This document shows, in pieces, positions 1 through 30,584 of a DNA stretch of 32,000 nt. Positions within the stretch are counted from its first letter, which is position 1. Each line of letters starts with the position of its first letter. The translations under genes were made by a program, and so were the position numbers. Source of the DNA: Rhabdonatronobacter sediminivivens (lineage in GTDB: Bacteria; Pseudomonadota; Alphaproteobacteria; Rhodobacterales; Rhodobacteraceae); contig NZ_JACBXS010000036.1 of assembly GCF_013415485.1 (NCBI RefSeq), positions 1 through 32,000 of the forward strand, in the 5' to 3' direction. The notes beneath the pieces were generated by a model, which was given only the letters and a program-made list of their open reading frames with translations, had not been told where the DNA came from and searched no databases.

Positions 1-2230
1 GCGGATGGGGCGCGGGGGCGGCGGGGACCTCCCAGCCCGAAAGGTCGATGATATTGTGCCAGTCCTGATCCGACAGGTCGATCGCGCCCAGCTCGGCCCC
101 GTGGTGGGTGACCAGCGCGTCGCGCACCAGCGGGCCGATCGGGTGCCAGACCGCGCCGGGGCCGAACCAGCGGCGGATGTTTTCGGCACAGGCGGCGATG
201 TCATAGCGGGGCACGCCTTCGGGGCCGTAATCGCTCATGGGCGGCTGGTTGACGATCACCTTGATGTGCTTCGCGTCGATCTGCGGCAGGTAGCGCTGGT
301 CATGCCACAGGCTGGGCGGATAGCGCAGGATCAGCAGATCGCAGGAGACGTGATCCTCAGGGGTCAGGACCTGGACCGTATCGCCATCGACCGTGTCTAG
401 AACCTCGTCCAGCATCGACAGCTTCACACCGCTTCCGAACATGTCATAGCGGTAGAGTTCGAACAGCCCCGTGCGCAGCCCGTGGGCGCGGTTGAAGCGC
501 GCCTCTTCCAGGCAGGATTTGACGCTGCCGCCGGGCATGCGGAATTCCGACCCGATGATGACGGGGAAATGCGCCCCGGACAGGGGGCGCGCCCGGTCGG
601 ACAGGATGGCGGGAACGGGAAAGGGGCGGGGCGTGGCCGGATCGGCGCTGTAGCGCAGTTCGGCGGCCCGGTGGTGGTGATGGCGTGCCGCGTTGAGATA
701 GGTTTTCAGCGCGCCATGCGCGGCGGCCGGGGACAGGGCCGGGCCGGGGGCGGCATGGGGCCAGCGGGTCAGCAGCAGCGGGGCTTCGGCGGTCAGGGCT
801 TCGGCGGCCGGGGCCAGGGCGCCGGGGTCGGCATGGCGCAGGCGGGCCAGCAGTTCGGCGTCATGGCCCCGGGCCACCCGGTCCCAGGCGCCCAGACGCT
901 CGGTCATCACGGTGCGGCGCAGCAGCAGCGCGCCCGGGTCGGGGGCGCTCAGGGCCATGTCCTCGGTCCAGCCGGTGACCTGAAGCTGCGGGGTCAGCCA
1001 CAGCCGGTTGGCCAGGGTGGCGGCGTGGGTGTCGCTGTCGCGCAGAGGCGCCATCTGCCGGGCGATGCGCTGCGGATGGGCCAGGCTGGTCGCATCCTGC
1101 ACGGTCACGAAAGCGCCCCGGGCCCGGGCCAGCCCGATGTTCAGCGCCTCGGCCTGCAGCGCCGGGGCGGGCAGGTCCAGCAGGCGGATGCGCGGGTCGC
1201 GCGCGGCCGCGGCGGCCACCTGCGCGGCGGTATCGTCGGTGCTGGCGCGGTCGATGACCAGGATCTCCAGCGCGTGCCAGTCCTGCCGCAGAAGGCTGTT
1301 CAGGGTGGCGGCGATGCTGGCGCCGTGGTTGCAGGTGGCCACCAGCACCGAGACCAGCGGCGCGGTGCCGGTCCCGTCAACCCTGCTGTCCGGCGCCCCT
1401 TCGGGCCAGCCCAGCCGGTCGAAGGGGGTATCGGCCTGCCCCCTGCCCGCTTCGGGGCCTTCCACCCCGGAACCCTCCACCTCGGGGCTCTCCAGCACCG
1501 CGCCCGCCAGCCCGGCCCCGGTCCAGACCGCGTTGATCCAGGCCAGACGCTCGGCCGGGGTGGCGCCCAGGTTGGTGCGGGCCAGATGCAGCCGGTCCGA
1601 GGCCAGCCCCGCCGCCGCATCCCGGTCATAATCGGCCAGGGCGGTGTCCCTGTCGCCCAGCAGCTCCAGGCACAGCAGCCAGGCAGGCGCGATCTGGCGG
1701 CGCAGGGCCAGATCAGGGGCCAGTTGCGCGGCGCGGGCCAGCCAGTCCCGGGCCGCGCCACGGGCTGCCGCGCCGTCCCGCGGGTTGGCGCTGTCATGCA
1801 GATAGAGGCAGCCCAGTTCCAGCGCCGCCCGCGCGCGCCGCCCGTCATCGGGGGCGGTTTCGGCCTGCTGGCGCAGATCCTCCTGCACGCGCCGGGTGAA
1901 GCCAAGCGCCAGCCGCCGCAGCCGCAGCGCGGCCATGGAGTGGTCCGTATCCGGGCGGGGGGCACGGCGGGGCAGGTTGCGCCAGCGCCCGATCAGCTCG
2001 TAATGCACCAGCGGATTGAGCCCGCTCTGCGCGGCCTCGGGGTGGGTGTCCAGATAGAAGCGGGTGTCAAAGAACTTGCCCGGATCACGCCCCAGAAACG
2101 CGCCGTATTTCAGGTAATGTTCCGCCGGGGACATCCCCAGCGCCGCAACCTCGGGGTTCCGGGCCATGTACCATTTGCGGTGAAACTGGTCCGATCCTTC
2201 GATCCGGGCGATCTGGGCCTGCCAGTCCAT
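1..2230 (-). CDS. Family-2 glycosyltransferase carrying the shared N-terminal WY/NPLVHY module; 3' end lies outside the window (partial)
   Basis: Not in the supplied track because no stop falls inside the window. My reverse-strand translation from ATG at 2230 reads MDWQAQIARIEGSDQFHRKWYMARNPEVAALGMSPAEHYLKYGAFLGRDPGKFFDTRFYLDTHPEAAQSGLNPLVHYELIGRW. Further on it reads APLVSVLVATCNHGASIAATLNSLLRQDWHALEILVIDRASTDDT, a GT2 Rossmann/DxD-type signature. The frame stays open to position 2, with strongly G/C-biased third codon positions. Confidence 0.8.
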   Translation of the reverse strand, partial: MDWQAQIARIEGSDQFHRKWYMARNPEVAALGMSPAEHYLKYGAFLGRDPGKFFDTRFYLDTHPEAAQSGLNPLVHYELIGRWRNLPRRAPRPDTDHSMAALRLRRLALGFTRRVQEDLRQQAETAPDDGRRARAALELGCLYLHDSANPRDGAAARGAARDWLARAAQLAPDLALRRQIAPAWLLCLELLGDRDTALADYDRDAAAGLASDRLHLARTNLGATPAERLAWINAVWTGAGLAGAVLESPEVEGSGVEGPEAGRGQADTPFDRLGWPEGAPDSRVDGTGTAPLVSVLVATCNHGASIAATLNSLLRQDWHALEILVIDRASTDDTAAQVAAAAARDPRIRLLDLPAPALQAEALNIGLARARGAFVTVQDATSLAHPQRIARQMAPLRDSDTHAATLANRLWLTPQLQVTGWTEDMALSAPDPGALLLRRTVMTERLGAWDRVARGHDAELLARLRHADPGALAPAAEALTAEAPLLLTRWPHAAPGPALSPAAAHGALKTYLNAARHHHHRAAELRYSADPATPRPFPVPAILSDRARPLSGAHFPVIIGSEFRMPGGSVKSCLEEARFNRAHGLRTGLFELYRYDMFGSGVKLSMLDEVLDTVDGDTVQVLTPEDHVSCDLLILRYPPSLWHDQRYLPQIDAKHIKVIVNQPPMSDYGPEGVPRYDIAACAENIRRWFGPGAVWHPIGPLVRDALVTHHGAELGAIDLSDQDWHNIIDLSGWEVPAAPAPHP

Positions 2231-2497
2231 CGGCGTGTCCGCTGCAGCCCCGGCCGGGATATCCGTCTGCGGGCCGGATACGGACGCGGGGCGGGATGTC
2301 GATGTCATGCGCTTGCCTTGCGGATCGTTCCTGTGCGGATCATGCCTGTCCCTGCCTTGCCACGCCGGAACCCTTCCCCGGGGCTGGTTCGGAAGCATCG
2401 TGAATGGCCGTCGGCATGTCAACGCAGGGACGCCGATTTGCCTGGCCCTTCGCGATGCGTCCGGACCGGCCCGCCGGGGTCTTTGGGTCCGGGCGGG

Positions 2498-3725: not shown

Positions 3726-5411
3726 CTATTTTTCGGCGGAACCGGACAGCGCCGTCTTGACCCGGCGCAGCGGGGCCGTGACCCGCCAGGACGTGCTGTT
3801 GACCAGCAGATCGATGCGCTTGCGCAGGGCATCACGCTTGACCAGTGCCTTTTCCAGCTTGTCGCTCAGCCGGGCGATTTCGGCGGTACGTTCATCGGCC
3901 TGGGCCTGCAGGGCGGTGCAGCTGCGCTGCGCCGTTTCCAGTTGCGCAGCCATTTCGGCCAGGGCGCTGTCGCGCGCGCCCAGCTGCGCCTCGGCGGTGT
4001 CGGCGCGGGTTTCGGCTTCGGTCAGCGCGGCTTCGGCGGTGGTGGCGCGGGTTTCGGCCTCGGCCAGCTGGGCCTCAAGCGCCTTGCGCTGGTCGCGCAG
4101 CTCATTGCCCTGACGCCAGAATTCCTTGCGCCTGGTGTTGGCCTCCTCCAGCTCGGCCTGCATGGTTTCCATCTGTGCGGCCATCTCGGCCTGCGCGGCC
4201 TCGGCGGCGGCGCTCCGCTCCTGATGGGCCGCCACTTCGGCCTGATAGGCCTCTTCGCGGGCTTCCAGCCGTGCGATCAGCTTTTCAACCGCGTCCTGAC
4301 GCTGCGCCAGGCTCTGTTCCAATGCGGCCTGCGCCTGCGCCTGCTGGTCCTGCGTGGCCGTCACCTCGGCCAGGCGCCGATCCCGGGCGGTCAGCTGTGC
4401 GACCAGATCCGCCTGTGCATTCCGGGCCGTGGTCAGCTCCGCCTGCAGCCGGTCGCCCCGTTCGGTCTGGGCGCGCACTGCCTCGCGCAGGTCGAACAGC
4501 TCGGCCTCTGCCCCGGCCATGCGGGCGTGGCGCGCGTCATAGGCCTCGCTGAGGGTGCCATGCCGGTCGCGCAGCTCCTCCAGCGCGGCTTCGACCGCGG
4601 CCTGTTCGCGGGCGCGCTGGTCCAGATCGGCCTCCAGCCGGCGGGCGCGGTTGCTTTCGCTGTCGGCATGATGGGCGGCGGCATTGAGCTGGCCCAGGCG
4701 GCGAAACACCTGATGGACCACATGATGTTCGGGCGAGGCCACGGCAAGCCCGGCCAGGCGCTGCACCCGGCGCGCCCTGTCCTGGCCCGTGTCCTCGGCG
4801 CCATGGCACAGCGCCAGCAGCCCGCCGCCATGATCGAAGCGCACATGGCTGTGGCGCTGTTGCAGCCCGGCCAGCGCATGGGCGGTGTCAGGGTCGCGGG
4901 CGGCGGCCTCCAGCCCGGCCAGGACGGTCACCCCGGGCTGCGCCATGCGGGGGCCCCATTCATTGGTCAGCTGCGCCAGCATCTGCGCGTCCAGCGGGCG
5001 GTCCACCAGCACCAGGTCCAGCCCGTCCTCGACCATGGCCGGGGGCCCGCTGCCCATCTCCAGCCGCGAGAAATCGTCATAATGTTCTTCGTTGTAGCGC
5101 AGCAGATCGGCAGGGATGGCGCCGTCCTTGCGGGTGTCGAAACCGTGGCACACGGCTTCCAGGCCCAGTTTCTCCACCCCTTGGCACAGGGCGAAATGCG
5201 CCACCCCCGTATCCAGCCCCAGGGTGGCGCAGTGGCGCGGGCGCAGATCGGCGATCAGCCAGAACAGGAAGGGCAGATGCTCCAGCCAGCGCGAGGGGCG
5301 CAGGCGCCGCGGGCGCCAGAATATCTCGCGGTTGCCGATGCGCAGGACCGGTTCAGGGTCCGAATGACGAAGCGGGGCGGCAGTATGCGCGCTGGAAACG
5401 GACTGGGACAT
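3726..5411 (-). CDS. Class-I methyltransferase-like (degenerate) N-domain, ~300-aa Ala/Glu/Gln/Arg coiled coil, and C-terminal [13 protein letters not shown] motif
   Basis: N-terminus [17 protein letters not shown]...[16 protein letters not shown]...[11 protein letters not shown] resembles the WxEHxPF-type SAM-methyltransferase family common in LPS/EPS loci. The long heptad-like region runs [39 protein letters not shown] and beyond. 561 aa, good codon bias. Confidence 0.8.
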
Positions 5412-5605
5412 GCGACAGGGCTTCCCGGACTGAAAATTGAGACAAGGATCAGGGCCATCCCTTAACGCATGGCAGGGACGGATGCCAGCCGTGGATGCAA
5501 CGTGCGCTGGCTTCAGGCTTTCTTGGCGGTGCGCCGCTTAGGGTGGCGCCAAGTTTCCCGGCAGCCGCCCTGTCGCCCCCGCACCAACCCCCGGAGCCTG
5601 CGTTC

Positions 5606-6715
5606 ATGTCCGATCTCTCCGCCCGCCTGGGCCTGCCCTATCTGATGCCCGCCCAGGCGCAGAAACATGTCACCCATAACGAGGCCCTGGCCCGCCTGGA
5701 CCTGCTGGTGCAGCTGGTGGTGCAGGGGTTCGAGGCCAGCACCCCGCCCGAAACCCCGCAAGAGGGCCAGATCTGGGCGCTGGGACCGGCCCCCACCGGC
5801 GCCTGGGCGGGCCAGGCCGGGGCGCTGGCCGCCTGGGTGGACGGGGTGTGGCAGTTCATCCCCCCGCAGACCGGCTGGCGCGCCGTGCAGGTGGGGTCCG
5901 AAGGGGCAGAGCTGCGCCTGTTCACCACCGCAGGCTGGGCGGTGCCGCAGGCAGCGCTGCCCGACAGCCTGCCGGGGCTGGGGATCAACACCAGCCATGA
6001 CAGCACCAACCGGCTGGCGGTGGCCGCCGAGGCCACGCTGCTCAGCCACGCAGGCGCGGGCCATCAGCTGAAGCTCAACAAGGCCGCCGCCACCGATACC
6101 GCCAGCCTGCTGTTCCAGACCGGCTGGGGCGGGCGGGCGGAAATGGGCACCGCCGGGACGGATGATTTCGCCATCAAGGTCAGCGCCGATGGCAGCGCCT
6201 GGGCGGACGCGCTGGTGATCGACCGCGCCTCGGGCCGCGCCGCCCTGCCCAATGGCGCCACCATCGCCGGGACCGAGGCCTACCGGCGCGGCAATATCCT
6301 GGGCACGGTCAGCCAGTCCGGCGGGGTGCCCACCGGCGCGGTGATCGATGCGGGCGCCAATGCCAATGGCCATTATGTCCGGTTCGCCGATGGCACCATG
6401 ATCACCGCCACCCGCTTCACCATCACCGAATCCAGCAGTTTCGATGCGCGGCTGACGGCGAATGCAACCCTGCCCGCCGCCTTTCACAGCATCGCCAGCA
6501 TGTATCCGCAGCTCAGCCTGCCCATTCATTCCAGTTCCGCGCTCAGCGGGGTCGATCGCACCGATATTGAAAGCTGGGGCTGCGCGCAGCCGGGCGGGAC
6601 GGGCAGCTTCAGCACCACGCAGATCGGCTGTTCGGTGTTCTGCAAGCCCGGCACGGTCAGCGCCGGCGCCAGCATCGCGGACATGTATCTGACCGTCACC
6701 GGCCGCTGGTTCTGA
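5606..6715 (+). CDS. DUF2793-type phage/GTA tail-fibre-like protein
   Basis: MSDLSARLGLPYLMPAQAQKHVTHNEALARLDLLVQLVV...GQIWALG...WAGQAGALAAWVDGVWQFIPPQTGW is the DUF2793 N-terminal signature as I recall it. The C-terminus GANANGHYVRFADGTMI looks like a fibre-tip domain. ATG at 5606 has GGAG 10 nt upstream, so the track start 5495 is rejected. Confidence 0.85.
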   Translation: MSDLSARLGLPYLMPAQAQKHVTHNEALARLDLLVQLVVQGFEASTPPETPQEGQIWALGPAPTGAWAGQAGALAAWVDGVWQFIPPQTGWRAVQVGSEGAELRLFTTAGWAVPQAALPDSLPGLGINTSHDSTNRLAVAAEATLLSHAGAGHQLKLNKAAATDTASLLFQTGWGGRAEMGTAGTDDFAIKVSADGSAWADALVIDRASGRAALPNGATIAGTEAYRRGNILGTVSQSGGVPTGAVIDAGANANGHYVRFADGTMITATRFTITESSSFDARLTANATLPAAFHSIASMYPQLSLPIHSSSALSGVDRTDIESWGCAQPGGTGSFSTTQIGCSVFCKPGTVSAGASIADMYLTVTGRWF

Positions 6716-7847: not shown

Positions 7848-9179
7848 ATGAAAAAACAATTCTGCCGGGGGCAACGAGTGACCAAATCCGTTTACGTGGG
7901 CATGAGCGCCGATCTGATCCATCCGGGCCATATCAACATCCTCAAGCGCGCGGCCGAACTGGGCGAGGTCACCGTGGGCCTGCTGACCGACAAGGCGATT
8001 GCCAGCTACAAGCGCGTCCCCTTCATGGCCTGGGAACAGCGCGCCGAGGTGGTGGGCAACCTCAAGGGTGTGGTCCGCGTGGTCCCGCAGCACACGCTGG
8101 ATTATGTGCCCAACCTGCGCGAATATCGCCCCGATTACGTGGTCCATGGCGATGACTGGCAGACCGGCGTGCAGGCCAAGACCCGTCAGGCGGTGATCGA
8201 TGCGCTGGCCGAATGGGGCGGCGAACTGGTCGAGGTGGCCTATACCCAGGGCGTGTCCTCGACCCAGCTGAACAAGGCGCTCAAGGAGATCGGCACCACC
8301 CCGGACATCCGCCGCGCCAGCCTGCGCCGGATGCTGCATGCCAAGCCGCTGGTGCGCTTTCTGGACCTGCACAATGCGCTCTCGGGGCTGATCATCGAAA
8401 AGGCCTTCATCGACACCCCCCAGGGGCGGCGCGAATTCGACGGGATGTGGGCCAGCTCGCTCACCGATTCCACCGCCAAGGGCAAACCGGATATCGAGGC
8501 CGTGGACACCACGGGGCGGATGAACACCCTCAACGAGGTGCTGGAAGTCACCACCAAGCCGATCATCTATGACGGCGATACCGGCGGCAAGCCCGAGCAT
8601 TTCGTCTTCACCGTGCGCACGCTGGAACGCCTGGGCGTGTCCGCCGTCATCATCGAGGACAAGACCGGGCTGAAGAAGAACTCGCTCTTCGGCACGGATG
8701 TCGCCCAGACCCAGGAAAGCATCGAGGCGTTTTCCGACAAGATCCGCATGGGCAAGCTGGCCCAGCAATCCGAGGATTTCATGATCTTCGCCCGCCTGGA
8801 AAGCCTGATCCTGGGCAAGGGCGTGGATCACGCCATGGAACGGGCCGAGGCGTTTCTGGAGGCCGGCGCCGACGGGATCATGATCCATTCGCGCCAGAAG
8901 ACCCCGGATGAGGTGTTCGAATTCTGCCGCCGCTACAACAAGCTGGAAAACCGCAAGCCGCTGGTGGCCGTGCCCTCAAGCTACAACCAGACCACCGAAC
9001 AGGAACTGGAGGATAACGGCGTCAATATCGTCATCTACGCCAACCAGCTGCTGCGTTCGGCCTATCCGGCGATGCTGGGCACGGCGGTGTCGATCCTGAA
9101 ACACGCGCGGTCTTCGGAATGCGATGAGCGGATGATGCCGATCAAGGAAATCCTGGAGCTGATCCCGGGGACGAAATGA
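7848..9179 (+). CDS. pepM: Bifunctional cytidylyltransferase-phosphoenolpyruvate mutase (Fom1-like architecture)
   Basis: The N-terminal ~130 aa, [26 protein letters not shown], is an HxGH nucleotidyltransferase. The remainder is the PEP mutase core: [45 protein letters not shown]. An alternative in-frame GTG start exists at 7878. Confidence 0.95.
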
Positions 9180-10315
9180 TGATCTCGCCCCGCGCGTTTC
9201 ATGCCGCCCTGGCGGCCGAGGGCGTCGATTTCCTGGCCGGGGTGCCCGATTCCCTGCTCAAGGAGTTCTGCGCCTATGTGGATGCCGCCCTGCCCCCCGA
9301 AGGGCATGTGATCGCCGCCAATGAAGGCACCGCCGTGGGGCTGGCGGCGGGCCATCACCTGGCCACCGGCAGCCTGCCGCTGGTCTATCTGCAGAATTCG
9401 GGGCTGGGGAACACGGTCAACCCGATCCTGTCGCTGGCCGACCCCGAGGTCTACGCCCTGCCGATGATCGTCATGGTGGGCTGGCGCGGCGCCCCCGGCG
9501 TCAAGGATGAGCCCCAGCACGTCAAGCAGGGCCGGGTCACGCCCGCGCTGCTCGATGCGATGGAACTGCCATACCGCGCCCTGGACGGCGACCCCGAGGC
9601 CGCCGCCGAGGCCGCCGCCTGGGCTTGCCGCACCGCGCGCGAGACCTCCGCGCCGGTGGTGCTGCTGGTGCACAAGGGCGCCTTTGCCAAGGCCGAGGAA
9701 AAGCGCCCCGCGCGCGACATCCCCGACACCATGCTGACGCGCGAGGCCGCGATCCGGCTGATCACCGGCACCCTGCCCGCCGGCGCCACCATCGTTGCCA
9801 CCACCGGCATGATCTCGCGCGAGCTCTACGAATCGCGCGGGGCGCTGGGGCAGGACCGGTCCGGCGATTTCCTGACCGTGGGGTCCATGGGTCATGCCTC
9901 GCAGATCGCGCTGGGGATCGCGCGGGCAAGGCCCGGCGCGCAGGTGGTCTGCCTGGATGGCGATGGCGCGGCGCTGATGCATCTGGGCGGCATGGCCACG
10001 GTGGGCACCAGCGCAACCGGCGATCTGCTGCATGTGGTGCTCAACAATGGCGCCCATGACAGCGTCGGCGGGCAGCCCACGGTGGCGCAGCAGATCGCGC
10101 TTACGGGGATCGCGCGGGCCTGCGGCTATGACGCCGTCGAAGGCCCGGTCGAGGCCGAGGCCGATATCCGCGCCCAGGTCGATCGCCTGGCGCAGGCCCC
10201 GGGCCGGCGCTTCCTGGAGGTGCGCGTCCGCCCCGGTTCGCGCGCCGATCTGGGCCGGCCAAAGGAAAGCCCCGCGGAAAACAAGGCGCAATTCATCGCC
10301 CGGCTGCGCGGCTGA
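9176..10315 (+). CDS. ppd: Phosphonopyruvate decarboxylase (ThDP-dependent)
   Basis: [58 protein letters not shown]. Its ATG overlaps the pepM stop (ATGA). Confidence 0.95.
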
Positions 10316-17578: not shown

Positions 17579-20500
17579 ATGACCTTCGAAGAACAGTTGA
17601 CGATCCTGCGTGCCTCGCGGCATCTGCACAGGAAGTGGTATCTTCAGACCTATCCCGAAGTGGCCGCCGAAGGGGCCGATCCGGCCGAACACTACCTGCG
17701 CGAGGGGGCGCTCAAAGGGTACAGCCCCGGCAAGTTCTTCGACACGCAGTTGTATCTTTCACTCTATCCCGATGTCGCGGAAAGCGGTCTCAATCCGCTG
17801 GTGCATTACGAACGCATCGGGGCGGGCGAAAACCGCATCGCCAACCCCACCCGGGCGGCCATGCGCGACCGGCAGGAAAAGGTGCGCGCCATCCGCCGCG
17901 CAGAGCAGCAGGGCAACGGCCAGCCCCCCGGAAACAGCGTCGGCACCCCCGCCGAACCCTCCTCCCCCCCCCGCACTGCGGCACCCGCGGCAGAGTGGCG
18001 TGCGAAGGAAGGGTTGCAGAAGGTCATCCGCGGGATCGATTTCACCAAGCGGCGGAACTTTCTGCTGTTCTCGGCCCTGCATGCGGCGACGGATGCGCAG
18101 ATTGCGAAACATGCGGACCTGACCCGCGCGCTGTGTCGGCTGATCACCGATCTTGGCCTCACCTGGCACCAGGGGGGCACCGGGCCGAAACCTGCCACCG
18201 CGGGGGCGCGCCCGGGTATCGCGGTGCTGACCACAGGCAGCTTTGATCCCGAAACCGATCGCGCCCTGCTGGATCTTGCCCGGAGCGAAAACCCGGGCGC
18301 GGATATCCTGATCTGCGCGCCCGAAGGGGTCATCGACATCCAGCCCGCCCCGGGCTGCGCCCCTGATGAGGGGGTCGCGGAAGCGCCGGAGCCTGGCCCT
18401 GCTGCGGGATCGGGCAGATCGCGGCCCGGACCATGCGCCACGCTGGCCCGGGCGCTGGCCCGGGCCAGCCGCGCCTATACCCATGACGCCCCGGCGGGCA
18501 TGGATGCGCTGATCCGGGGCGTGCCGCTGACCGTCACCGGCGATCCGTTCTACGCGGGCTGGGGGTTCACCGATGACCGCGCCGCGCTGCGCGGGCGGGA
18601 GCGCCAGCTGGATGTGACCGGGTTCCTGACGATCCTGTTCTTCCTGCTGCCGGACGACCCCTCCCCGTCCGGAGATCCCGTCGCCAGGGTACTGGACCGG
18701 ATCATCGCCACATACCGGGGGGGGACCGCGCGCAGCGCGGCGGCACTGCCCGACAGATCGGGGCTGATGTCCTATGCCGCCGCCCGCAAGGCCAGGGCCG
18801 AAACCCCCGATGCCCCCCGCTACCAGGCTCATGTCAAGGCCAGGATGGCCCTGAACAGCGCCGCCCTGGCGGCCTGCCAGGCGGGCACCTGGCCGGCCTT
18901 TCTCGAAACCCCTGTGCGCGCGCATCTGTCCCTCGGCACGCGCCGGGAAATGGTCGACCGGCTGATCGGCCAGGCGGGGCTGGCGCGGCTGCGCACGGGC
19001 GCGGCGCGGCGCCTGCTGGCCGCGATGATCTGCGGGCTGGCCCATACCGCCGATCATCTGGACCCGGTGATGCCCGAGGTGGCCCGGCTTCTGGGCCGCG
19101 GGGAATGCGCGCGGCTGATTTCGGCGCTGGCGCGCATCTCGGGGCGCCCCTCGGCGACGCTGGTGCCCGGCTGGATGAGCGATGCCGGGGCAGGCACAGG
19201 GGCAGGGACAGGAGCAGGCACGGGGAGCCCCGCAGCCGCACCCGATGACCTGATGCTGGCGGTGATGCAGGTCCTGCCGGGCCAGGGGGGGGACGGGCTG
19301 CCAACGCTGCTGGACTGGGCGCAGCAGTGCCAGGCGCGCGGGCATCGTGGAGCGGCACTGCAGTTGCTGGAATGCTGTTTCCTGACCGGGCGCTGCCCGC
19401 CCGAGGCGCTGGCCCTGGCCATCGACCTGCTTTGGCAGGGGTTCGAGGTCGCGGCCGCGACCGAGATGCTGACCCTTGCCGCGCGCTGCTGGCCCGAATG
19501 GCAGGGCGGGCATTTCCCCATCCTGCTGGCGCAATTGACGGCAGTGCGCGGCGATGCACCGGCCACGCTTGACGCCCTGATCGGCGTCGCCCATGCCGGC
19601 GCTGCCGATGCCCTGCGCAACGCCACATTTGACGCGCTGCTGGCCCGGCATTACCCCGGCCTGCCGCTGACGGCGGCGCTGGAACGCATGGCGACAGAGG
19701 GGGGTCAGCCGGATGAGGACGGGTCCGGACAGGCCCCCGATCCACTGGCCCCCGATCCACTGGCCCCCGATCCACTGGCCCGCGCGCGCTATCTGTCCGG
19801 CCAGCGCCGCCCGGCCGAGGCCCAGGCCCTGCTGGCCGCGCTTCCGGAGGCCGAAGCCGACAGCGATGCCGCGCGGATCGAGATGAGCACCGCCCTGGCG
19901 CTGCAGGGCCGTTTCAAACAGGCCGACACCCTGCTGGGCCCGAACCCCGAAGGCGCCTGCTTTGACCAGGCGGTCCGGCTGGCCGCGCTTGTCGGCGATA
20001 CCGCCCGGGCAAAGGCCCTGGCCAGCATGGCACGCCGGCGCAAGACCGCGCTGGCCCCCGCAACCCGGCGTCTGATGCACCAGACACGCGGCGATTTTGC
20101 CGGCACGATGGAGGCCTGGCGCGCCGATCCTGCCGCCGCGCTGGCCGCGCGCCATCTGGGCATCCGGCTGGCGCGCAGCCTGCAGGCCCTGACCGCCGGA
20201 ACCGGCCAGCGGCTGCTGGTGGCAATGGTCGACACGCCCGGCGGCGATGCGGCCTGGAGCGGGCTTCTGCCCCGGCTGGCCAGGGCCTGTGCCGGGCATG
20301 AGCTGCATATCGCCTGCGACCGGGGCCTGGCGCCGGTTCTGGCGCGGTCCTTCCCGCAGATCGCATTCGTGCCCTGCGCGCGCCAGCCCGGACCGATACC
20401 GGTCACCGACAGGCCCGGCCACCTGCCCGCGGCCGAGCTTCTGGCGCTGTTCGATGCCGAGGGCTGGGACGCCGCCATCGCCGCGGACCGGGTTGCGCTG

Positions 20501-23706: not shown

Positions 23707-24426
23707 CTAGAGCAGGCTGATCCCCCGCGCCTTGCGCGCCAGGGCAATGTCTTCGAGCAGGTGGAACTGGTCCTCCCAGTCGATATCCATGACCAGCCGT
23801 TCGGGCATGTCATGCAGATACGGGTTGGTGCCGATCCGGTCATCGACCGCGCGCATCCGGGCGAAGGGCATCAGATAGGCGGCGTGGTTGATCTCGAACA
23901 GCGGCTTGATGTCCTGGCTGCGGGGCCATTTCTCGACCGTGTTGTCGTAATTGTAAGGGCCGTTTTCATCCCAGATGAACTTGTGCAGCGTGGTGACGGT
24001 GACCAGGCTGTCATGGCCCCGCGCTTCGGCCGCCCGCCAGGCGGCGATCAGGTCCGCAAACACCGCCGCGGTGAGGAACGGATGCGTCACATGGGTCATC
24101 ATCATCACGCCGGTCTCGCGCAGGGTCGCGGCGTAGCGGATGAAGGCGCTAATCGGGGTTGAGGACGCGCCCAGCTCATCGGGGCGTTCGATGGGACTCA
24201 CGCGGCGGTCATGGTCCCGGGCAAACTGCGTGGCATAGTCCAGCACCACGGGATCATTGGTCGAGACAATGATCTCCGAGACCTCGGGCACCCGGGCAAG
24301 CTGGTTCAGCTTCAGCTCCAGCAACCCGCCGTCGAAGCCGGCGAAGGGGCGGGTGTTCTTCTGCTTCACCCGCTCGCTGCCCGCGCGGGCGGGGATCAGG
24401 GCGATGACCCTGCCTGTGTCAGTCAT
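23707..24426 (-). CDS. Acylneuraminate cytidylyltransferase-family protein (CMP-ulosonic acid synthetase-like), paralog 1
   Basis: VIALIPARAGSERVKQKNTRPFAG is the N-terminal CTP_transf_3-type motif. 239 aa. Confidence 0.85.
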   Translation of the reverse strand: MTDTGRVIALIPARAGSERVKQKNTRPFAGFDGGLLELKLNQLARVPEVSEIIVSTNDPVVLDYATQFARDHDRRVSPIERPDELGASSTPISAFIRYAATLRETGVMMMTHVTHPFLTAAVFADLIAAWRAAEARGHDSLVTVTTLHKFIWDENGPYNYDNTVEKWPRSQDIKPLFEINHAAYLMPFARMRAVDDRIGTNPYLHDMPERLVMDIDWEDQFHLLEDIALARKARGISLL

Positions 24427-24510
24427 GCGTGCGGTATCCCGTTGCTGCAGTCATGGGGCGCACCCCGCGCAGGCAAACCCCGGCCGGGGCGCAGCGATCA
24501 CGCGGACCCG

Positions 24511-25251
24511 TCACGGGGCCTGGAAGTCCGGGTAAGGTATGCCGTTCTCGCGGATCCAGTCCTCGGTGGTCTTGAGGTCCTCAAGGCTGTGGACATCCAG
24601 GCAGCCCTTGGTCGGATACGGCTTGATCCGGGTGCCCATGCAATCCCACGGCCCCTGCCCGCCCGGCGTGCGGATCGCATCCGCGCGCAGCACCCAGATG
24701 GAATGATCGAAGAAATAGCAGGTGGGCAGGTCCTGGCGGTTGGCCGAGACCGGCGCCCCGGTATCGACAAAGGGTTTCAGCAGGCCTTCGTCGGTCACGC
24801 CCTTGGCGCGCATGGGATGGTATTCGTTGTGTTCATGGCTGGGCACCACGGAACTGAGGCTCGCATCCGCCAGAAGCTGGTCGATGCAATCGTCGATGAT
24901 CTGTTCGGATATGGTGCCGACATTGGCATGCTGCACGATCACGATATCCACCGGGCCGTCGGCCTCGATCACCTTCAGCGCATGGCGCACCGCATCGCAG
25001 CTTTGCGCGGTGTCGCTGGCCAGTTCATCGGGACGGCGGATCTTCGCATACCCGGCCTGTGCCGCCGTATCGAGGATCTTCTCGTCATCGCTGCTGATGT
25101 AGTAACGGCCGATATGGCGGCTGCGCCGCGCCGCCGCCGCTGCCCAATGCAGCAGCGGATGGCCCAGCACCGGCAGGATGTTCTTGTCTTTCAGCGAGCT
25201 TCCCCCCCGCCCGATCATCAATGCCGCGATCGTCGCGCGCTTTTCACTCAT
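24511..25251 (-). CDS. Acylneuraminate cytidylyltransferase-family protein, paralog 2
   Basis: MSEKRATIAALMIGRGGSSLKDKNILPVLGHPLLHW. ATG at 25251 lies 5 nt after the upstream stop. The track start 25410 is rejected because that extension is Arg/Gly junk. Confidence 0.85.
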   Translation of the reverse strand: MSEKRATIAALMIGRGGSSLKDKNILPVLGHPLLHWAAAAARRSRHIGRYYISSDDEKILDTAAQAGYAKIRRPDELASDTAQSCDAVRHALKVIEADGPVDIVIVQHANVGTISEQIIDDCIDQLLADASLSSVVPSHEHNEYHPMRAKGVTDEGLLKPFVDTGAPVSANRQDLPTCYFFDHSIWVLRADAIRTPGGQGPWDCMGTRIKPYPTKGCLDVHSLEDLKTTEDWIRENGIPYPDFQAP

Positions 25252-25256
25252 GCCGC

Positions 25257-26798
25257 TTACCCTGCCTTTCGGAAATACTTGTGGTGTTCGCTCTCGTTCA
25301 CGCGCTTCTCCTCCGAGCCGATGATCACCTCGGCCTCGCGGATGGCGGCGACGTAATCGGCGAATTCGCGGGTGGTCAGATCCAGCGCCACGGCATCGAA
25401 ATGGGCCCATTCGGTATTGCCCAGCTTCACATGCTTTTCCACCATCCGCGCGCCCGCCGCCACCGCCAGGGTTGACGCCAGGGCGCCGAAATCATGGCTG
25501 GAATAGGCCGGGACGATATGGGGGTGCGCCTTCGACAGATCCCGGTAATGGCGGATCACGCCGATGTCGCAATCATGCAGCGGCGTGGGATAGGCGGAGT
25601 TGCACTGCATCAGATACAGCCGGTCGCAACTGGTGAAGGTCTCCAGCACCCATTGTTCATAGGCGGTGTCGGTCATGCCCGTGGACAGCACGATCCCGCC
25701 TTTGTACGTGTTCGCCACATGGGCCAGATAGTCGGTATGTTCCGAAATGGTCGAGGGCAGCTTGACCAGCTCGGGCTCGAACTGCTGCATGAAGCGGAAC
25801 GAGGGTTCATCGAGCACCGAGGCGAACCAGCGGATGCCAAGATCACGGCACAGCCGGTCCAGGAATTCGAAATCTTCCTGGCTCAGTTCCAGCGCGTGGC
25901 GATAATCGCGGAAGGTGGTGCCGAAGGGCGAGACATATTTCCCGTCCAGCTGCTCCTTGGGGTAGAAGCTTTCCACGTCGCGCTTCTGGACCTTGACGAA
26001 ATCGGCCCCTGCGGCGCGGGCGGCGCGCACCATGCGTTCCAGCCGGTTGCGGTCGCCGAAATGGTTGGTGGTCAGTTCCGCGGTGACCAGCACCCGGTCG
26101 GGGTCGGTGTCGGTGCCGCTGTCCAGTTCGGGCAGGAAACGGGTGTTCAGCTCCTCAGGGGTCAGGCCGGAAAACGCCCGGTCGCCCACATGCTGGATGT
26201 CCACCTCGCTGTCGCGCAGCATGTACAGGGTGTTGATGAAATAGAATTCCTGCGGGGAAATGCGGGCCATGCGCTCGCCGGTCTCGGTGGGGGCGTAATC
26301 ATGGTCGATGGCATGGGCATAGCCCTTGGTGGCGGCGAAATCGAAGCCCAGCATATAGACCGTCTGGGTGCGCCCGCGCTGGCGCGCGATCAGGCGCGCC
26401 AGCCGCAGCGCCGAGACAAAGAGCACATCCTCGATCACGAAATCCTCGCCCGGGGTGTCGGTGACCAGGCGGCTCATCATCACGTCGGTGCCTTCCTGAT
26501 CGCCGCGCACATGGCGCGCGTGCGCCACATCGCCGCGCGGCGGGGCGATATCCTGCGGGGTCACATAAAGCCGTGAGCGCCAGCCGCTGGCCTTGAGCGC
26601 CTCATGCACCCAGCCGTCATGAAAGATGGTGATGTCGCAGGGCGCAATGCGTTCGGCATCGTTGAGCCCGATCACCAGCGCATTGGACAGAAGCGCCGGG
26701 TTGATCCGGTCAACCGACGGTCCCTTGCCCAGAATGAAGATCGTATCGGTGCCGAATGTCGACGCGATACTTTCGACCCGGTTCGAGAAATTCGCCAT
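25257..26798 (-). CDS. NeuB-family (sialic/ulosonic acid synthase) TIM-barrel domain fused to an N-terminal ~235-aa GxGPS transferase-like domain; no SAF domain
   Basis: C-terminal half: VTAELTTNHFGDRNRLERMVRAARAAGADFVKVQKRD...VKLPSTI...YSSHDFG...ARMVEKHV. N-terminal half: TIFILGKGPSVDRINPALLSNALVIGLNDA...TVYMLGFDF. Start ATG 26798 has GAAGGGA ~10 nt upstream; the alternative is 26828. Confidence 0.85.
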   Translation of the reverse strand: MANFSNRVESIASTFGTDTIFILGKGPSVDRINPALLSNALVIGLNDAERIAPCDITIFHDGWVHEALKASGWRSRLYVTPQDIAPPRGDVAHARHVRGDQEGTDVMMSRLVTDTPGEDFVIEDVLFVSALRLARLIARQRGRTQTVYMLGFDFAATKGYAHAIDHDYAPTETGERMARISPQEFYFINTLYMLRDSEVDIQHVGDRAFSGLTPEELNTRFLPELDSGTDTDPDRVLVTAELTTNHFGDRNRLERMVRAARAAGADFVKVQKRDVESFYPKEQLDGKYVSPFGTTFRDYRHALELSQEDFEFLDRLCRDLGIRWFASVLDEPSFRFMQQFEPELVKLPSTISEHTDYLAHVANTYKGGIVLSTGMTDTAYEQWVLETFTSCDRLYLMQCNSAYPTPLHDCDIGVIRHYRDLSKAHPHIVPAYSSHDFGALASTLAVAAGARMVEKHVKLGNTEWAHFDAVALDLTTREFADYVAAIREAEVIIGSEEKRVNESEHHKYFRKAG

Positions 26799-27534
26799 GA
26801 TAGGGTTTCCCTTCAACTTCGATATCACAATGATGTTCGCGCGCCAGCATCAGCCCGGGCAGCAGATCCCAGGAATAGGCCCCGCGCGGGTTGGTAAAAC
26901 GGGCAAAGGCCCCGCGCACGACATTATACAGGTTATACACCGCGCAGCCCATCAGGCGGCTTTCGCGGGTCTCGGCCATGCCTTGCAGGATTTCATCACA
27001 CATGGATGACGAAAACCCGCGAATGCGCGACCGGATGGGCACCAGCGTATCGCCGGTCATCAGATGTTCGTTCAGTTCGGGCAGATACAGCAGGCTGCCC
27101 AGATGGGTTGTCCCGTGCCAGAGCGTGAAGGACACGCCCCATTCCTTCAGGCCGGAACAGAAATTCTCGGTCCCGTCGATCGGGTCCAGGATGGCGTAAT
27201 AGCCCGCACTGGTCAGGTCGGTCTCGGCGGAAAAGGTTTCTTCGCCGGCGAAGGTGACATCGGGGATGCGCGCGGCCAGATAGTCATGGATCAGGGTTTC
27301 GATCAGCACGTCCGAGGCGGTGACCGGGCTGCCATCGGGCTTGATGGTGATGTCATAGCGGCTGGCCTGGATGCGCTCCATGTTGGCGCGCACCAGATCC
27401 ATCAGCCCCGCCATCAGGGCGCGGGTCTGCGCCAGATCCGGCAGGGTGTCGGCCTGCAGGCGCGGTTCGGCGGCGGTCGATGCGGCGGCGGTCGATGCAG
27501 CAGGGGGCGGGGCGGCGGGGGGCGGAGGCGTCAT
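26710..27534 (-). CDS. Inositol monophosphatase / CysQ-family phosphatase
   Basis: ILDPIDGTENF and YSWDLLPGLMLARE motifs. Its ATG overlaps the upstream stop (ATGA). Its 3' end overlaps the next gene by 89 nt. The N-terminus is Pro/Ala-rich and contains a 15-bp x2 repeat at 27469-27498. Confidence 0.85.
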   Translation of the reverse strand: MTPPPPAAPPPAASTAAASTAAEPRLQADTLPDLAQTRALMAGLMDLVRANMERIQASRYDITIKPDGSPVTASDVLIETLIHDYLAARIPDVTFAGEETFSAETDLTSAGYYAILDPIDGTENFCSGLKEWGVSFTLWHGTTHLGSLLYLPELNEHLMTGDTLVPIRSRIRGFSSSMCDEILQGMAETRESRLMGCAVYNLYNVVRGAFARFTNPRGAYSWDLLPGLMLAREHHCDIEVEGKPYHGEFLEPGRKYRVDIRHRYDLHSGQGTVG

Positions 27535-30500
27535 TCTGCGGCATTCCTTTCGGCGTCAGCTTTGGACGGAGGGGGATCAAGCGGCTTTTCCAGCCCCAGC
27601 AGGTCGAAGAAATCCACCCGCTCCAGCATGTCCAGCTTGCCCCCCGGCGAGGCGTTGTAGAGCCGGCAGCCATCGCTTTCGACGGCCTTCTGCAGATTGG
27701 CAAAGGCCAGGTTGACCATCTCGGTGCCCGATCCGCCGGGGCGGAAATTGGCCAGCCGTTCGGTCTCCTTGCGGCCGCCGCCGTAGAAATGCGTCACCGC
27801 GCCGGAATAATCCAGATCGACCCCGATGATGTAGATTTCCGAATAGCCCATCAGATGCGCCAGCTGCGCGGCCAGCACCACCACGGTCTCGCCGCGGTGG
27901 AAATGCAGCGGCGCATGGCGGAAGGGGGCCAGCGACAGCTTCAGCCCCGAAGACCCCAGCGGGATCGCGGGCACCGTGGGCGGCTTGCGCCACAGGCAGT
28001 TCGAGGCGACGAAGAATTTCTCGACCGAGGCGCCGTCGGCGTCGATCTCCCCGGCGTGGTTCTTGTAGACAAGCGGATCGGCCACCACCAGGTATTTCGG
28101 CTGCGGCAGGCCCACATCCAGCGCCCGCATCCCGCGGTTGACGCAGAAGATATCCTCGCCCGCCAGCGCGCCCAGCGGCAGATCGGCGATCGACGGGGCA
28201 TTGCCGACGATGAAGCAGCGCTTGCGCCCGGCCAGGTTCAGGGTGGTGCCCGCATCGAAGCCCAGATGGCGCTGCTGCCAGTCGCCGATACGCTCGGCCA
28301 TCTGGGTGAAGCCCAGCCGTTCGGCACAGGCCAGCAACCGCGCGACCACGCCCGCCGACAGCGGCAGGCGGAACAGCAGCCCCGTGGTCAGCGACATGGC
28401 GAACCCGTCCAGGTCGTTCTGCGCCAGCTGGTCCAGAAAGGCGGTGGCCTCGGCCTCGGCCCCGGCGACATCGGCGCGCCCCAGCATGATGTCGATCTTG
28501 TTGCGGATGACGTTCCAGACCTTCCTGACGTTCGCGTCGGTCAGCTCGCCGGGGGCGGGCAGGGCCAGCAGCGCTTCGACCTGCTCCCAGTCGCGCCGGC
28601 GCATGAAGAACTGCAGCAGCTCTTCTTGCTGCACCGGGTCCATCTCCAGCCCCTGGGCGGCGGTCTCGGCGATCCGGGCGGCATGGGTCACGGCGACCGC
28701 ATCGCCCTGCGCGGGATTGAGCAGCATGCCGATGGAATCGGACAGGAACTTGCCGTCATAAAGCGTGGCGATGCGCAAAAGCAGCTCGTGGATTTCCTGC
28801 GGCAGGAAGGATTGCGGCGCGGGGTGCAGCCGGATCAGGTCATAGATCCAGCGGGTGACGCGCAGTGTCTCGATGCTCTTTGGCAGTTTCTGCGTCACCG
28901 CCGCCTGCATCACATCGCGCATGGCGGCGAAATCGCCGCGCCGGTAATGGATTTCGATCATGGCGCGCAGCCACAAGGTGTCGCGCGCGTAGCGGGCCGT
29001 GTATGTCTCCAGCACTTCCTCGCAGTCCTCCAGCCGCGAACTTTCCAGCAACGAGAGCACCAGCGAGGGAAAATAGATGCGCGGCTCCGGCGCGCTTTCC
29101 AGCAGCTTGCGCACCCACCAGATCGAGGCCGAATGGCGGGTATTCGCCGACAGGAGCCGCGCCACCATGGCGCGGACATTCTCGGGGTAGAAGCGGCGGG
29201 CGCGGCGGGCAAACAGCAGCGCCCCGGCCTCGTCCACCGATTGCACGGTGGTGGCCAGCGTCAACATGCCGGTGGCGCGCAGCCGGCCGATGCGGATGGC
29301 CTCGGTGCGCGCGCGCGCGTTTTCGACCCCGATGCGATAGACCCATTCGGGCGGCATGGCCCCGGCCTCGGTGGGGTCGATGGCTTCGACCTTCTGCCAG
29401 CGCTCCAGCGCCACGGCCCAGGCATCCTGGGCGATGGCGACCTCGGAATGCAGCTTCAGATAGGCGATCTCGCGCGGGAATTTGGTGACCAGGCGCTTGG
29501 CCTCTTCTTCGGCCGCGTCCGGATCCCCGGCCTGCACCAGCGCGCGCACGCCGCGCAGATAGCTGCTGGTCTTGGCCACGCCGGTGGCCTTCAGCCCGCG
29601 CTTCAACCAGATATCGGCGGCGCGGGCCCAATCGCCCTGCGCTTCGGCCAGCAGCCCGTCGGCGCGCTGAAAGCCGGTATCCGCATCATGGCTGGCGCGC
29701 AGCCCTTCGACCAGGGCCTCGGCCCGGGGCAGGTCGCCCAGCTGGACAAAGGCTTCGACCACCGAAAGCTGCAGCTTCGGCTCCACCAGGGCGCCGCTGT
29801 CCTCGATCATCTGCCAGCGCAGGGCGACATCGCTCCAGCGTCTGGCCTTCAGCGCCAGCCGGCACCAGGCCTCCAGCAGCAGGGGGTTGGCCTCGAACCG
29901 GGCCAGACCGTCGCGCAGGATCGCATCGGCGCGGGCCAGATCGCCCATTTCCGCCGCCGCCTGGCTCAGCCCGACATAGGGTTCGGCAGGCAGCGCCAGC
30001 GCGTGCTGCCAATGGCGCGAGGCCTCCAGCCAGTCGCCCTTCTTCGCTGCCGCACGGGCCTTGGCCGACAGCCGGTCCAGGGCGGTGCTCTGGCCCGGAG
30101 CGGCGGCGGGCGGGGCGGCGGGCGGCGGGGTGGCGGGGCCGGGTTTCAGCGTGGCCTTGAGCTTGCGTATCTCCTCCTGGGCGGCCTTGGTGGCGGCCTC
30201 GGCAGCGGCCTTGCGGGCTTCGGCAATGGCGGTCTTCCGGACGGATTCGGCCTCCTTGCGGCGGGCGGCTTCCGTGGCCTTCCGGGCCTTCTGGTCCTCG
30301 CTCGCGGCCTTGGCGGGGTTGATGATCCGGTTTTCCGCAACACCGATCACTTCATAGTGGACCAGCGGGTTCAGCCCGCTGGTGGCCACATCCGGGTAGC
30401 GCGAGACATAGAGCGCCGTGTCGAAGAACTTGCCGGGGTTATACCCTTTCTGCGCGCCCTCGGTCAGGTAATGCTCGGCCGGGTCCAGGCCCTGCGCCTT

Positions 30501-30584
30501 CACCTCGGGATAGGTGCTGCGATACCAGCTCTTGTGCAGGTGCTTGGAATTCTTTATCTTTTCCAGTTGTTCGGAAATATCCAC
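27531..30584 (-). CDS. 1017-aa protein: shared N-module, Ala/Lys/Glu coiled coil, long TPR array, and C-terminal GT42/DUF115 (Maf)-like CMP-nonulosonate transferase-like domain
   Basis: GTG start with GGAGG ~8 nt upstream. (M)DISEQLEKIKNSKHLHKSWYRSTYPEVKAQGLDPAEHYLTEGAQKGYNPGKFFDTALYVSRYPDVATSGLNPLVHYEVIG. C-terminus: CFIVGNAPSIADLPLGALAGEDIFCVNRG...LMGYSEIYIIGVDLDY, compare Cst-II IIAGNGPSLKEID...DVFRCNQF...LGYKEIYLSGIDFY. Confidence 0.85.
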   Translation of the reverse strand: MDISEQLEKIKNSKHLHKSWYRSTYPEVKAQGLDPAEHYLTEGAQKGYNPGKFFDTALYVSRYPDVATSGLNPLVHYEVIGVAENRIINPAKAASEDQKARKATEAARRKEAESVRKTAIAEARKAAAEAATKAAQEEIRKLKATLKPGPATPPPAAPPAAAPGQSTALDRLSAKARAAAKKGDWLEASRHWQHALALPAEPYVGLSQAAAEMGDLARADAILRDGLARFEANPLLLEAWCRLALKARRWSDVALRWQMIEDSGALVEPKLQLSVVEAFVQLGDLPRAEALVEGLRASHDADTGFQRADGLLAEAQGDWARAADIWLKRGLKATGVAKTSSYLRGVRALVQAGDPDAAEEEAKRLVTKFPREIAYLKLHSEVAIAQDAWAVALERWQKVEAIDPTEAGAMPPEWVYRIGVENARARTEAIRIGRLRATGMLTLATTVQSVDEAGALLFARRARRFYPENVRAMVARLLSANTRHSASIWWVRKLLESAPEPRIYFPSLVLSLLESSRLEDCEEVLETYTARYARDTLWLRAMIEIHYRRGDFAAMRDVMQAAVTQKLPKSIETLRVTRWIYDLIRLHPAPQSFLPQEIHELLLRIATLYDGKFLSDSIGMLLNPAQGDAVAVTHAARIAETAAQGLEMDPVQQEELLQFFMRRRDWEQVEALLALPAPGELTDANVRKVWNVIRNKIDIMLGRADVAGAEAEATAFLDQLAQNDLDGFAMSLTTGLLFRLPLSAGVVARLLACAERLGFTQMAERIGDWQQRHLGFDAGTTLNLAGRKRCFIVGNAPSIADLPLGALAGEDIFCVNRGMRALDVGLPQPKYLVVADPLVYKNHAGEIDADGASVEKFFVASNCLWRKPPTVPAIPLGSSGLKLSLAPFRHAPLHFHRGETVVVLAAQLAHLMGYSEIYIIGVDLDYSGAVTHFYGGGRKETERLANFRPGGSGTEMVNLAFANLQKAVESDGCRLYNASPGGKLDMLERVDFFDLLGLEKPLDPPPSKADAERNAAE

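Follow-up and report, generated by a model that had tools for sequence, protein, structure and literature searches.

Four genes of the window, i.e. the whole stretch of DNA analysed here (32,000 nucleotides), share an N-terminal module of about 90 aa (Table 1). In a MAFFT alignment, the first 86 residues of the four copies align without gaps, with 37 invariant columns, and pairwise identity ranges from 42 to 60 residues out of 86 (49–70%). A profile HMM built from these four copies was used to search the six-frame translation of the window. Exactly four matches were obtained (E 1e-47 to 1e-53) and no further copy was found, the next-best score being no better than E 0.7. The gap-free N-terminus of about 85 residues that an earlier note on this DNA had described in four genes is thus borne out. 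The ATG at 17579 is aligned with the other three module starts and with those of P0162 and P0006. Within each module, units 1 and 2 have 10–13 of 38 residues in common, so that the internal duplication proposed earlier stands, with a unit of 38 aa instead of about 35. All eight units also match, with a spacing of 38 aa, an independent unit HMM made from 1153 units taken from unrelated proteins (E 1e-13 to 1e-15). The modules of the 1716-aa and 1017-aa proteins are closer to each other (70% identity) than either is to orthologous modules. A recent duplication as the source of the four copies was considered and rejected, the DNA identity between modules being only 71–78%.

Table 1. Position of the N-terminal modules and of related features in the window
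Feature	Position	Strand	Start codon	Content	Basis
Module of the GT2 protein	1946–2230	-	ATG at 2230	cap helix; unit 1 ~2188–2075; unit 2 ~2074–1961	HMM, alignment
Module of the 880-aa protein	11516–11800	+	ATG at 11516	unit 1 ~11558–11671; unit 2 ~11672–11785	HMM, alignment
Module of the 1716-aa protein	17579–17863	+	ATG at 17579	unit 1 ~17621–17734; unit 2 ~17735–17848	HMM, alignment
Module of the 1017-aa protein	30300–30584	-	GTG at 30584	unit 1 ~30542–30429; unit 2 ~30428–30315	HMM, alignment, AF2
561-aa protein	3726–5411	-		weak Methyltransf_24-like N-domain (E 0.023) and long coiled coil	
178-nt stretch	12367–12544	+		93% identical to 18451–18628	

Then, we searched for the domains that follow the module. 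The GT2 gene starts at 2230 and extends beyond the left window edge (743 aa or more), with PF00535 at residues 294–404. According to Pfam, the module of the 880-aa protein (11516–14158) is followed by a Capsule_synth (KpsC/S) fragment, TPR and an APH kinase domain, and that of the 1716-aa protein (17579–22729) by a Capsule_synth (KpsC/S-like) fragment and a weak C-terminal match to Sulfotransfer_3. The 1017-aa protein (30584 down to 27531) has a charged helix and a linker rich in Pro and Ala after the module, together with TPR and MptE-like/DUF115 (Maf type) regions; a PDB sequence search with this protein gave no match. Two labels from the earlier note need correction: the ‘GT42-like’ region of the 1017-aa protein is in fact MptE-like/Maf, and the ‘GT9-like’ region of the 1716-aa protein has no support in Pfam. 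Moreover, the paralogy of the 880-aa and 1716-aa proteins extends through some 350 N-terminal aa, i.e. beyond the module alone. The four different downstream architectures announced earlier are mostly found again by Pfam, but because of this paralogy they amount to three independent ones. The 178-nt stretch marks a sequence exchange between the paralogous regions of these two genes.

The 561-aa protein is a homologue of upstream partner proteins that elsewhere end in one or two repeat units. Neither the module HMM nor the unit HMM detected a unit in it, and its N-domain gave no match in a PDB sequence search. Module copies in the window are N-terminal only, with neither a tail-to-head unit pair nor a unit-bearing scaffold. 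No ABC transporter gene (Wzm/Wzt, KpsM/T) lies in these 32 kb and no transmembrane protein was found there except for one weak segment; the locus runs past both ends of the window.

Outside the window, the module profile retrieved at least 21,463 protein clusters (E ≤ 1e-3). The module is thus not something particular to four enzymes: it consists of a cap helix and two copies of a tandemly repeated unit of 38 residues and three helices. The unit consensus, LFDxxWYLxxYPDVAxxGxNPLxHYLxxGxxEGRxPxP, contains conserved aromatic, His, Asp and Arg positions. The period of 38 aa was found in 1112 unit spacings, in arrays of 1–24 units. Searches with the module and with multi-repeat proteins revealed no model for the repeat in Pfam-A, NCBIfam or the PDB sequences; the module itself had no Pfam match even at E ≤ 10, and no TPR or Sel1 model was among the results. 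Full-text literature searches with repeat motif strings returned no relevant paper. The repeat is a very common and yet uncatalogued family.

The AF2 monomer model of the two-unit module (pLDDT 95.5, pTM 0.85) contains three helices per unit (18–24, 26–31 and 35–43; 56–62, 65–69 and 73–81), and a nine-unit array is predicted with the same helix pattern (pLDDT 85). The module is therefore predicted to fold autonomously as an all-helical domain. Neither model had a significant fold match in the PDB with Foldseek. The best match, 3n7q_A (mTERF), was not significant (E 8.9, TM 0.13), i.e. there is no real similarity to mTERF proteins, which bind nucleic acid, although their repeats, too, are about 30–38 residues long and contain three short helices each. 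TPR, Sel1-like and other alpha-solenoid repeats, of 34–44 residues and two antiparallel helices, are binding scaffolds that also occur in polysaccharide secretion systems. Like them, the 38-aa repeat is short, helical, tandem, variable in number and non-catalytic; unlike them, it has three helices per unit, no match to the Pfam TPR or Sel1 models and no PDB solenoid match with Foldseek.

Several observations support the view that the module is a separable, non-catalytic accessory domain, as the earlier note had proposed. Among orthologues of the 1017-aa enzyme, P0158, P0162 and P0170 carry the module while P0161, P0167 and P0168 do not, the module-less ones still being 57–68% identical to the enzyme. 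Low-complexity linkers tether the module to the rest of the protein, and about 200 aa separate it from PF00535 in the GT2 protein of the window. In addition to this predicted autonomous folding, the module is attached to catalytic partners of many folds (GT-A, GT-B, Maf, KpsC/S-like, methyltransferase and sulfotransferase). It is thus not an integral part of one catalytic fold, its partners including GT2, GT1/4, WbsX, RgpF, Maf, KpsC/S-like, methyltransferase, sulfotransferase and M10 domains.

We then surveyed the domains of repeat carriers in 52 top matches and in 64 ORFs from 44 genomes. Most carriers have GT2, GT1/4, WbsX, RgpF, methyltransferase or sulfotransferase domains, and plasmid annotations agree with this glycan-enzyme context; the link of the repeat to glycan loci is strong. 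Such a context brings in the main rival to a docking adaptor, namely that the repeat is a putative substrate-binding element. It would hold the nascent glycan or a lipid-linked intermediate and so direct all tailoring enzymes to one and the same polymer, long arrays acting as a track for the growing chain. Action on glycans is indeed the sole common feature of carrier enzymes of any fold, 1–24 units with a strict periodicity suit a periodic ligand, and the conserved aromatic and polar positions of the unit are in keeping with such binding. The same idea covers the giant proteins and split gene pairs described below, as well as arrays on M10 metalloproteases and RTX/Ig-like proteins; some contexts are better explained in this way. 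These last carriers are probably extracellular, which one would not expect of a docking device in the cytoplasm. On the other side, the unit consensus is nearly identical across phyla whose glycans differ chemically. The subtype of the window (positions DPAEHYL, NPGKFFDT and SGLNPLVHYE) is also preserved in the four different enzymes and between genera, a sequence conservation that fits a conserved partner. Furthermore, in the Foldseek comparison with the PDB, the predicted all-helical fold resembles no known carbohydrate-binding module. The CBMs of glycan-assembly proteins, for instance those of Wzt and of K. pneumoniae O7 ORF6, the latter predicted to be Ig-like (PMC11231755), are likewise accessory non-catalytic domains that place enzymes or transporters at the glycan, but they are beta-sandwiches with demonstrated or predicted glycan binding. 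Overall, we regard substrate binding as a serious but rather unlikely explanation.

In ten giant proteins, a single chain combines Sulfotransfer_3, a coiled coil, a repeat array and GT modules (P0015, P0019, P0123 and P0075 among them). Their array, of variable length, follows the coiled coil and precedes the GT modules, as expected if the solenoid were a rigid spacer or ruler that, placed in series with a coiled-coil ruler, merely keeps catalytic modules a set distance apart. The short N-terminal modules would then be leftovers of split arrays, and the cap helix, which aligns with helix 3 of a preceding unit, fits such remnants. This explanation seems very improbable to us: a domain of two units that opens the protein has nothing to separate, the module is well conserved in the four enzymes (at the 49–70% identity given above) and in orthologues from other genera, and P0173, P0174 and P0178 contain ‘cap plus two units’ modules repeated like beads.

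At split loci this architecture is divided between an upstream and a downstream gene, whose proteins are homologues of the two ends of the giants. The split falls inside the array at 14 of the 53 loci: the upstream gene ends with one or two units and the next gene begins with units, at a nearly constant unit-to-unit distance of 68–105 nt in 12 of these 14 pairs. Examples are found on E. coli plasmid pEC81-2, where kps-like ABC export genes adjoin the pair, and on D. shibae pDSHI02. That the split pairs are frameshift artefacts was rejected, as ATG or GTG starts come after the stop codons and the arrangement recurs in 14 loci of different orders.

The fused terminator–coiled-coil–array–GT giants and the stereotyped split pairs bearing units on both sides lend indirect support to the role that we favour for the module, that of a putative recruitment or docking adaptor of a glycan-assembly complex, with a probability of roughly 45%. 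Carried on a flexible linker, it would draw enzymes of the cytoplasm that build or tailor glycans into a shared assembly complex through protein–protein contacts, which could consist of stacking of repeat units, side-by-side association or binding to a scaffold protein. We infer both the protein–protein nature of the contact and the gathering of the four window enzymes by the module. The docking reading is also suggested by one Paracoccus locus, at which the Maf orthologue lacks the module and no repeat-bearing ORF was found within 10 kb on each side (a single locus), i.e. module and repeat-bearing ORFs are absent together. However, the window offers no obvious partner for the modules, its coiled-coil protein being devoid of units, and the split pairs could result from simple gene fission in a tolerant array, with halves that do not interact. 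In addition, the giants have no need for docking and carry 10–24 units, which points to an additional or different role, for instance as a spacer or a glycan track.

A docking adaptor would have parallels in PKS/NRPS docking domains and in dockerin–cohesin pairs, which also are small terminal domains placed at an upstream C-terminus and a downstream N-terminus, in adjacent genes that can be fused or split. No kinship in sequence or fold links them to the repeat, whose pairing is putative and whose copies in the window are N-terminal without a complementary tail. Another comparison is offered by ABC-transporter-type polysaccharide assembly, in which coiled-coil terminator proteins recruit polymerases; the arrangement proposed here would be of this kind. 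[quoted passage not shown] As in WbdD–WbdA and WbbB, the order in relatives carrying the repeat is a terminating transferase (sulfotransferase or methyltransferase), a coiled coil and polymerase GT modules, and these parts are either fused into a single chain or spread over separate proteins that need recruitment. The window itself holds a weak methyltransferase-like coiled-coil protein and KpsC/S-like domains. In contrast to the repeat relatives, the described systems have no array of 38-aa repeats, recruitment being assigned to a C-terminal region of WbdD. The window, beyond whose ends the locus continues, has no ABC transporter, and its coiled-coil protein has no repeat unit.

The same region of WbdD-type proteins contains a membrane-binding element (PMC11231755). 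The module might target the membrane or a small ligand, with putative binding of phospholipid, undecaprenyl phosphate or a nucleotide placing soluble enzymes at the inner membrane face. Neither transmembrane segments nor signal peptides are present in the four module-bearing enzymes, although their substrates must be membrane-linked intermediates. Membrane targeting is disfavoured by the acidic character of the consensus unit and the neutral net charge of the window modules. An amphipathic helix is not apparent, and in the AF2 model the cap helix is packed into the domain. We consider this explanation improbable.

In a broader scheme, the 38-residue repeat might be a general and as yet unnamed assembly element of bacterial cytoplasmic glycan factories, in which units on separate chains would stack into a composite solenoid joining terminator, polymerase and tailoring enzymes, while the length of the array, added in series to the coiled coil, would help to set glycan chain length or guide the nascent chain. 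The enzymes so joined at this locus would be the GT2, the kinase-type, the sulfotransferase-type and the nonulosonic-acid transferase proteins. This broader scheme is speculative and we hold it to be doubtful.

The recruitment of separate catalytic modules into one complex is understood in part for ABC-transporter-type polysaccharide assembly. In WbdD–WbdA, the recruitment region has been mapped but a transferable motif is not known (PMC11231755). An abundant and easily recognised repeat, found at the terminator–polymerase junction and at the N-termini of tailoring enzymes, is a candidate for such a recruiting element. The repeat profile would also provide annotators with a new domain model for a region now unannotated in tens of thousands of proteins, and it would help to delimit the catalytic modules of giant glycosyltransferases.

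Finally, the best identity to the module in the searched genome collection was 65%, and a metagenome contig (L050) is 98% identical to the window over positions 24092–32000.

The N-termini of the GT2, 880-aa, 1716-aa and 1017-aa proteins, translated from their start codons (ATG in three genes, GTG in one), align without gaps over 86 columns, 37 of which are invariant, and the pairs share 42-60 of the 86 residues. A profile built from these four copies was scanned over the six frames of the window and recovered exactly four matches (E 1e-47 to 1e-53), the next best being no better than E 0.7. The gapless module that an earlier note had described in four genes is thus borne out. The internal duplication it reported is also real, but the unit has 38 residues and not ~35: all eight units of the window, spaced by 38 residues, match an independent unit profile (1153 units taken from unrelated proteins) with E values of 1e-13 to 1e-15.

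The four copies were said to head four different architectures. Pfam mostly confirmed separate domain sets (see table), but the label "GT9-like" found no Pfam support, and Maf/MptE-like is a better name than "GT42-like". Moreover, the 880-aa protein is a paralogue of the 1716-aa protein across their first ~350 residues (43% identity, E 3e-72), so the module heads three independent architectures. The same two genes share a 178-nt stretch with 93% DNA identity, whose product is an identical ~50-aa KpsC/S-type motif, ALARASRAYTHDAPAGMDALIRGVPLTVTGDPFYAGWGFTDDRAALRGR. Given this stretch and the paralogy, gene conversion or a recent exchange is likely.

Features of the window (start codon position only for the four module genes)
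Feature	Position	Strand	Content
GT2 protein, C-terminal domain	1-347	-	Extends past window end
GT2 protein	start 2230	-	GT2 domain, residues 294-404 (Pfam)
561-aa protein	3726-5411	-	Weak Methyltransf_24-like domain; coiled coil
DUF2793 protein	5495-6715		Between coiled-coil gene and phosphonate genes
Phosphonate biosynthesis set	7848-11494		PEP mutase-cytidylyltransferase fusion; phosphonopyruvate decarboxylase (TPP enzyme); Fe-alcohol dehydrogenase
880-aa protein	start 11516	+	KpsC/S-type Capsule_synth fragment; TPR; APH kinase domain (Pfam)
178-nt stretch, 880-aa gene	12367-12544		
178-nt stretch, 1716-aa gene	18451-18628		
1716-aa protein	start 17579	+	Capsule_synth fragment; weak Sulfotransfer_3 match (Pfam)
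Short tandem repeats	12242-12284; 14195-14244; 17475-17529; 19732-19781		Near-perfect, 12-18 nt
Nonulosonic-acid-type core	23707-27534		523-aa NeuB with N-terminal extension; two CTP_transf_3 cytidylyltransferases; IMPase-like phosphatase
1017-aa protein	start 30584	-	TPR; MptE-like (DUF115, Maf type) (Pfam)
ORF	30697-31911	-	ILEYGSGGST motif, methyltransferase-like look, in C-terminal ~200 aa

No model matching the module was found in Pfam-A, NCBIfam or PDB sequences. An exhaustive search of 1.84 billion cluster representatives with the module profile retrieved 21,463 proteins with E<=1e-3, of which 13,879 reach E<=1e-10, the top ones having up to 20 matched stretches each. In the best 150 matches, 1112 spacings between units measure exactly 38 residues, and arrays reach 24 units, in N-terminal, C-terminal or mid-protein position. 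The unit consensus is LFDxxWYLxxYPDVAxxGxNPLxHYLxxGxxEGRxPxP. The module of the window comprises one cap helix, which aligns with the third helix of a preceding unit in longer arrays, followed by two units. What had been read as one module common to four enzymes does occur in four copies, but it represents two units of a very large, uncatalogued repeat family tied to glycan-assembly enzymes, which the earlier note had missed. The AlphaFold2 model of the module alone is a compact, all-helical domain with three short helices per unit (pLDDT 95.5, pTM 0.85), and the same helix pattern is predicted for a nine-unit array of a relative (pLDDT 85). In its presumed manner of working the repeat would resemble helical-repeat scaffolds or docking elements. 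Membership of the TPR/Sel1 repeats was ruled out by a profile test and by helix number, and the module belongs to no catalytic fold.

Orthologues of the 1017-aa enzyme keep the module in Jannaschia, Gemmobacter and one metagenome, while those of Natronohydrobacter, Roseinatronobacter and Paracoccus have another short N-terminus in its place, the rest being 57-68% identical. At the Paracoccus locus, no repeat-bearing ORF was found up to 10 kb on either side. The linkers following the module in the window are charged, Pro/Ala-rich or otherwise of low complexity; that of the Jannaschia orthologue is AKP-rich, unlike the window's. The module is a helical repeat domain that is non-catalytic, can be separated from the enzymes and folds independently; orthologues with and without it, as well as the low-complexity linkers, support its previously proposed accessory nature. 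No signal peptide or TM segment is present in any of the four proteins. In a neighbour-joining tree, weak owing to the short sequences, the 1017-aa module groups with its counterparts from orthologues, as the GT2 module does with modules from GT2 homologues. Identity between the 1716-aa and 1017-aa modules is 70%, higher than among orthologous modules, which suggests that modules have spread within the genome. One tandem repeat (18 nt x 3.1) immediately precedes the 1716-aa start, and others are in frame within linkers (DPLAP x3, GPQx and AAKKP repeats); these repeats are possibly length-variable.

At many related loci, the gene of a coiled-coil protein with one or two C-terminal units is directly followed, after proper stop and start codons, by a glycosyltransferase gene opening with the cap helix and units. 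Counted systematically, 14 of 53 loci have a tail-to-head pair of this type, with a near-constant unit-to-unit distance (68-105 nt) in 12 of the 14; they include E. coli plasmid pEC81-2 (a kps-like ABC-transporter locus) and D. shibae plasmid pDSHI02. In addition, ten of the giants from the exhaustive search match the upstream partner by homology at their N-terminus and the downstream partner at their C-terminus, the repeat array lying in between; Pfam shows Sulfotransfer_3, a coiled coil and the array, followed by WbsX, RgpF, GT2 or GT4 modules. The same layout characterises coiled-coil terminator-polymerase systems of ABC-transporter-dependent glycan assembly, in which modules are variably spread over one or several proteins and cohesion depends on recruitment close to where the coiled-coil protein ends (PMC11231755, PMC3482155). 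In the relatives, the split point of this layout falls within the repeat array. A pure spacer or ruler could fit long arrays and leaves the two-unit N-terminal domain unexplained; it is the least probable of the readings considered, with membrane or small-ligand targeting, also of low probability, slightly ahead of it.

The non-repeat parts of the 52 top matches are mainly GT1/4, GT2, RgpF, WsaF, WbsX and methyltransferases. Searching with the window subtype gave 64 repeat-bearing ORFs in 44 genomes, with GT2 in 39, GT1/4 in 17, and WbsX, sulfotransferase, methyltransferase, RgpF or GT9 domains in others. Plasmid annotations show the same contexts, plus a minority of M10 metalloproteases (one with six C-terminal units), a trypsin-like protease, and Ig-like and RTX-type proteins. 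On Pseudoroseomonas cervicalis plasmid pL11-A (locus L049, 2570-6651), two neighbouring M10 (serralysin-like) metalloproteases bear six C-terminal units each, i.e. the repeat occurs outside glycan enzymes. Its link with glycan enzymes is strong, not exclusive. In the main competing reading, which is less likely than the one preferred below, the module would bind the glycan itself or a lipid-linked intermediate of it. This would account for the long arrays of the fused giants and for those carried by proteases and RTX-type proteins; against it speaks the near-identical consensus across organisms making different glycans. The best reading, to which we give a probability of about 45%, is that of a recruitment adaptor: through protein-protein contact, the module would bring enzymes to a shared assembly complex. 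It is favoured by the pairs split inside the array, by relatives in which the parts are fused, by recruitment being a known requirement of such systems, and by the additional conservation that the window subtype shows across enzymes and genera. The assembly-line docking suggested earlier is a plausible hypothesis. Accessory binding repeats on glycan enzymes are already known as a kind; neither this repeat nor its fold, nor its placement where terminator and polymerase parts meet, turned up in the databases and literature searched.

The window itself contains no tail-to-head pair according to the profile scans, and unit and module profiles detected no repeat unit in its 561-aa coiled-coil protein. 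This protein and the GT2 protein are homologous to the upstream and downstream partners of the related locus L004, respectively, and on the minus strand their genes keep this order and flank one for UDP-glucose dehydrogenase. The 561-aa protein ends soon after an 11-residue motif also present in the pEC81-2 methyltransferase (SWKLTAPVR), where it directly precedes the two C-terminal units. Its homologues in L004, L012 and L023 have C-terminal units, and L048 is also listed for this methyltransferase-like protein and its motif.

The phosphonate set directly upstream of the 880-aa gene suggests a phosphonate-decorated glycan. DUF2793 homologues occur in several related loci (L005, L007, L013, L015, L022). 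The nonulosonic-acid-type core adjoins the Maf-like gene here, in Jannaschia, in Paracoccus and in a 98%-identical metagenome contig (L046, L047, L050). In the latter (ENA ERZ27265939, 8774-11827, i.e. window ~27531-30584), the Maf-like gene is split into two called ORFs, one of 396 aa that carries the module and one of 608 aa, owing either to a frameshift or stop or to an assembly error. In the neighbouring ORF, the C-terminal ~200 aa have no Pfam match; its homologues (55-62% identical) adjoin module-bearing genes in L004, L012, L014, L035 and L037. Finally, the GT2 C-terminal domain resembles the C-terminus of a Paracoccus GT4 protein (L047) and shows 78% DNA identity with L050 5441-5784, part of a 904-aa unannotated protein which, in this close relative, is located past the window's right end.
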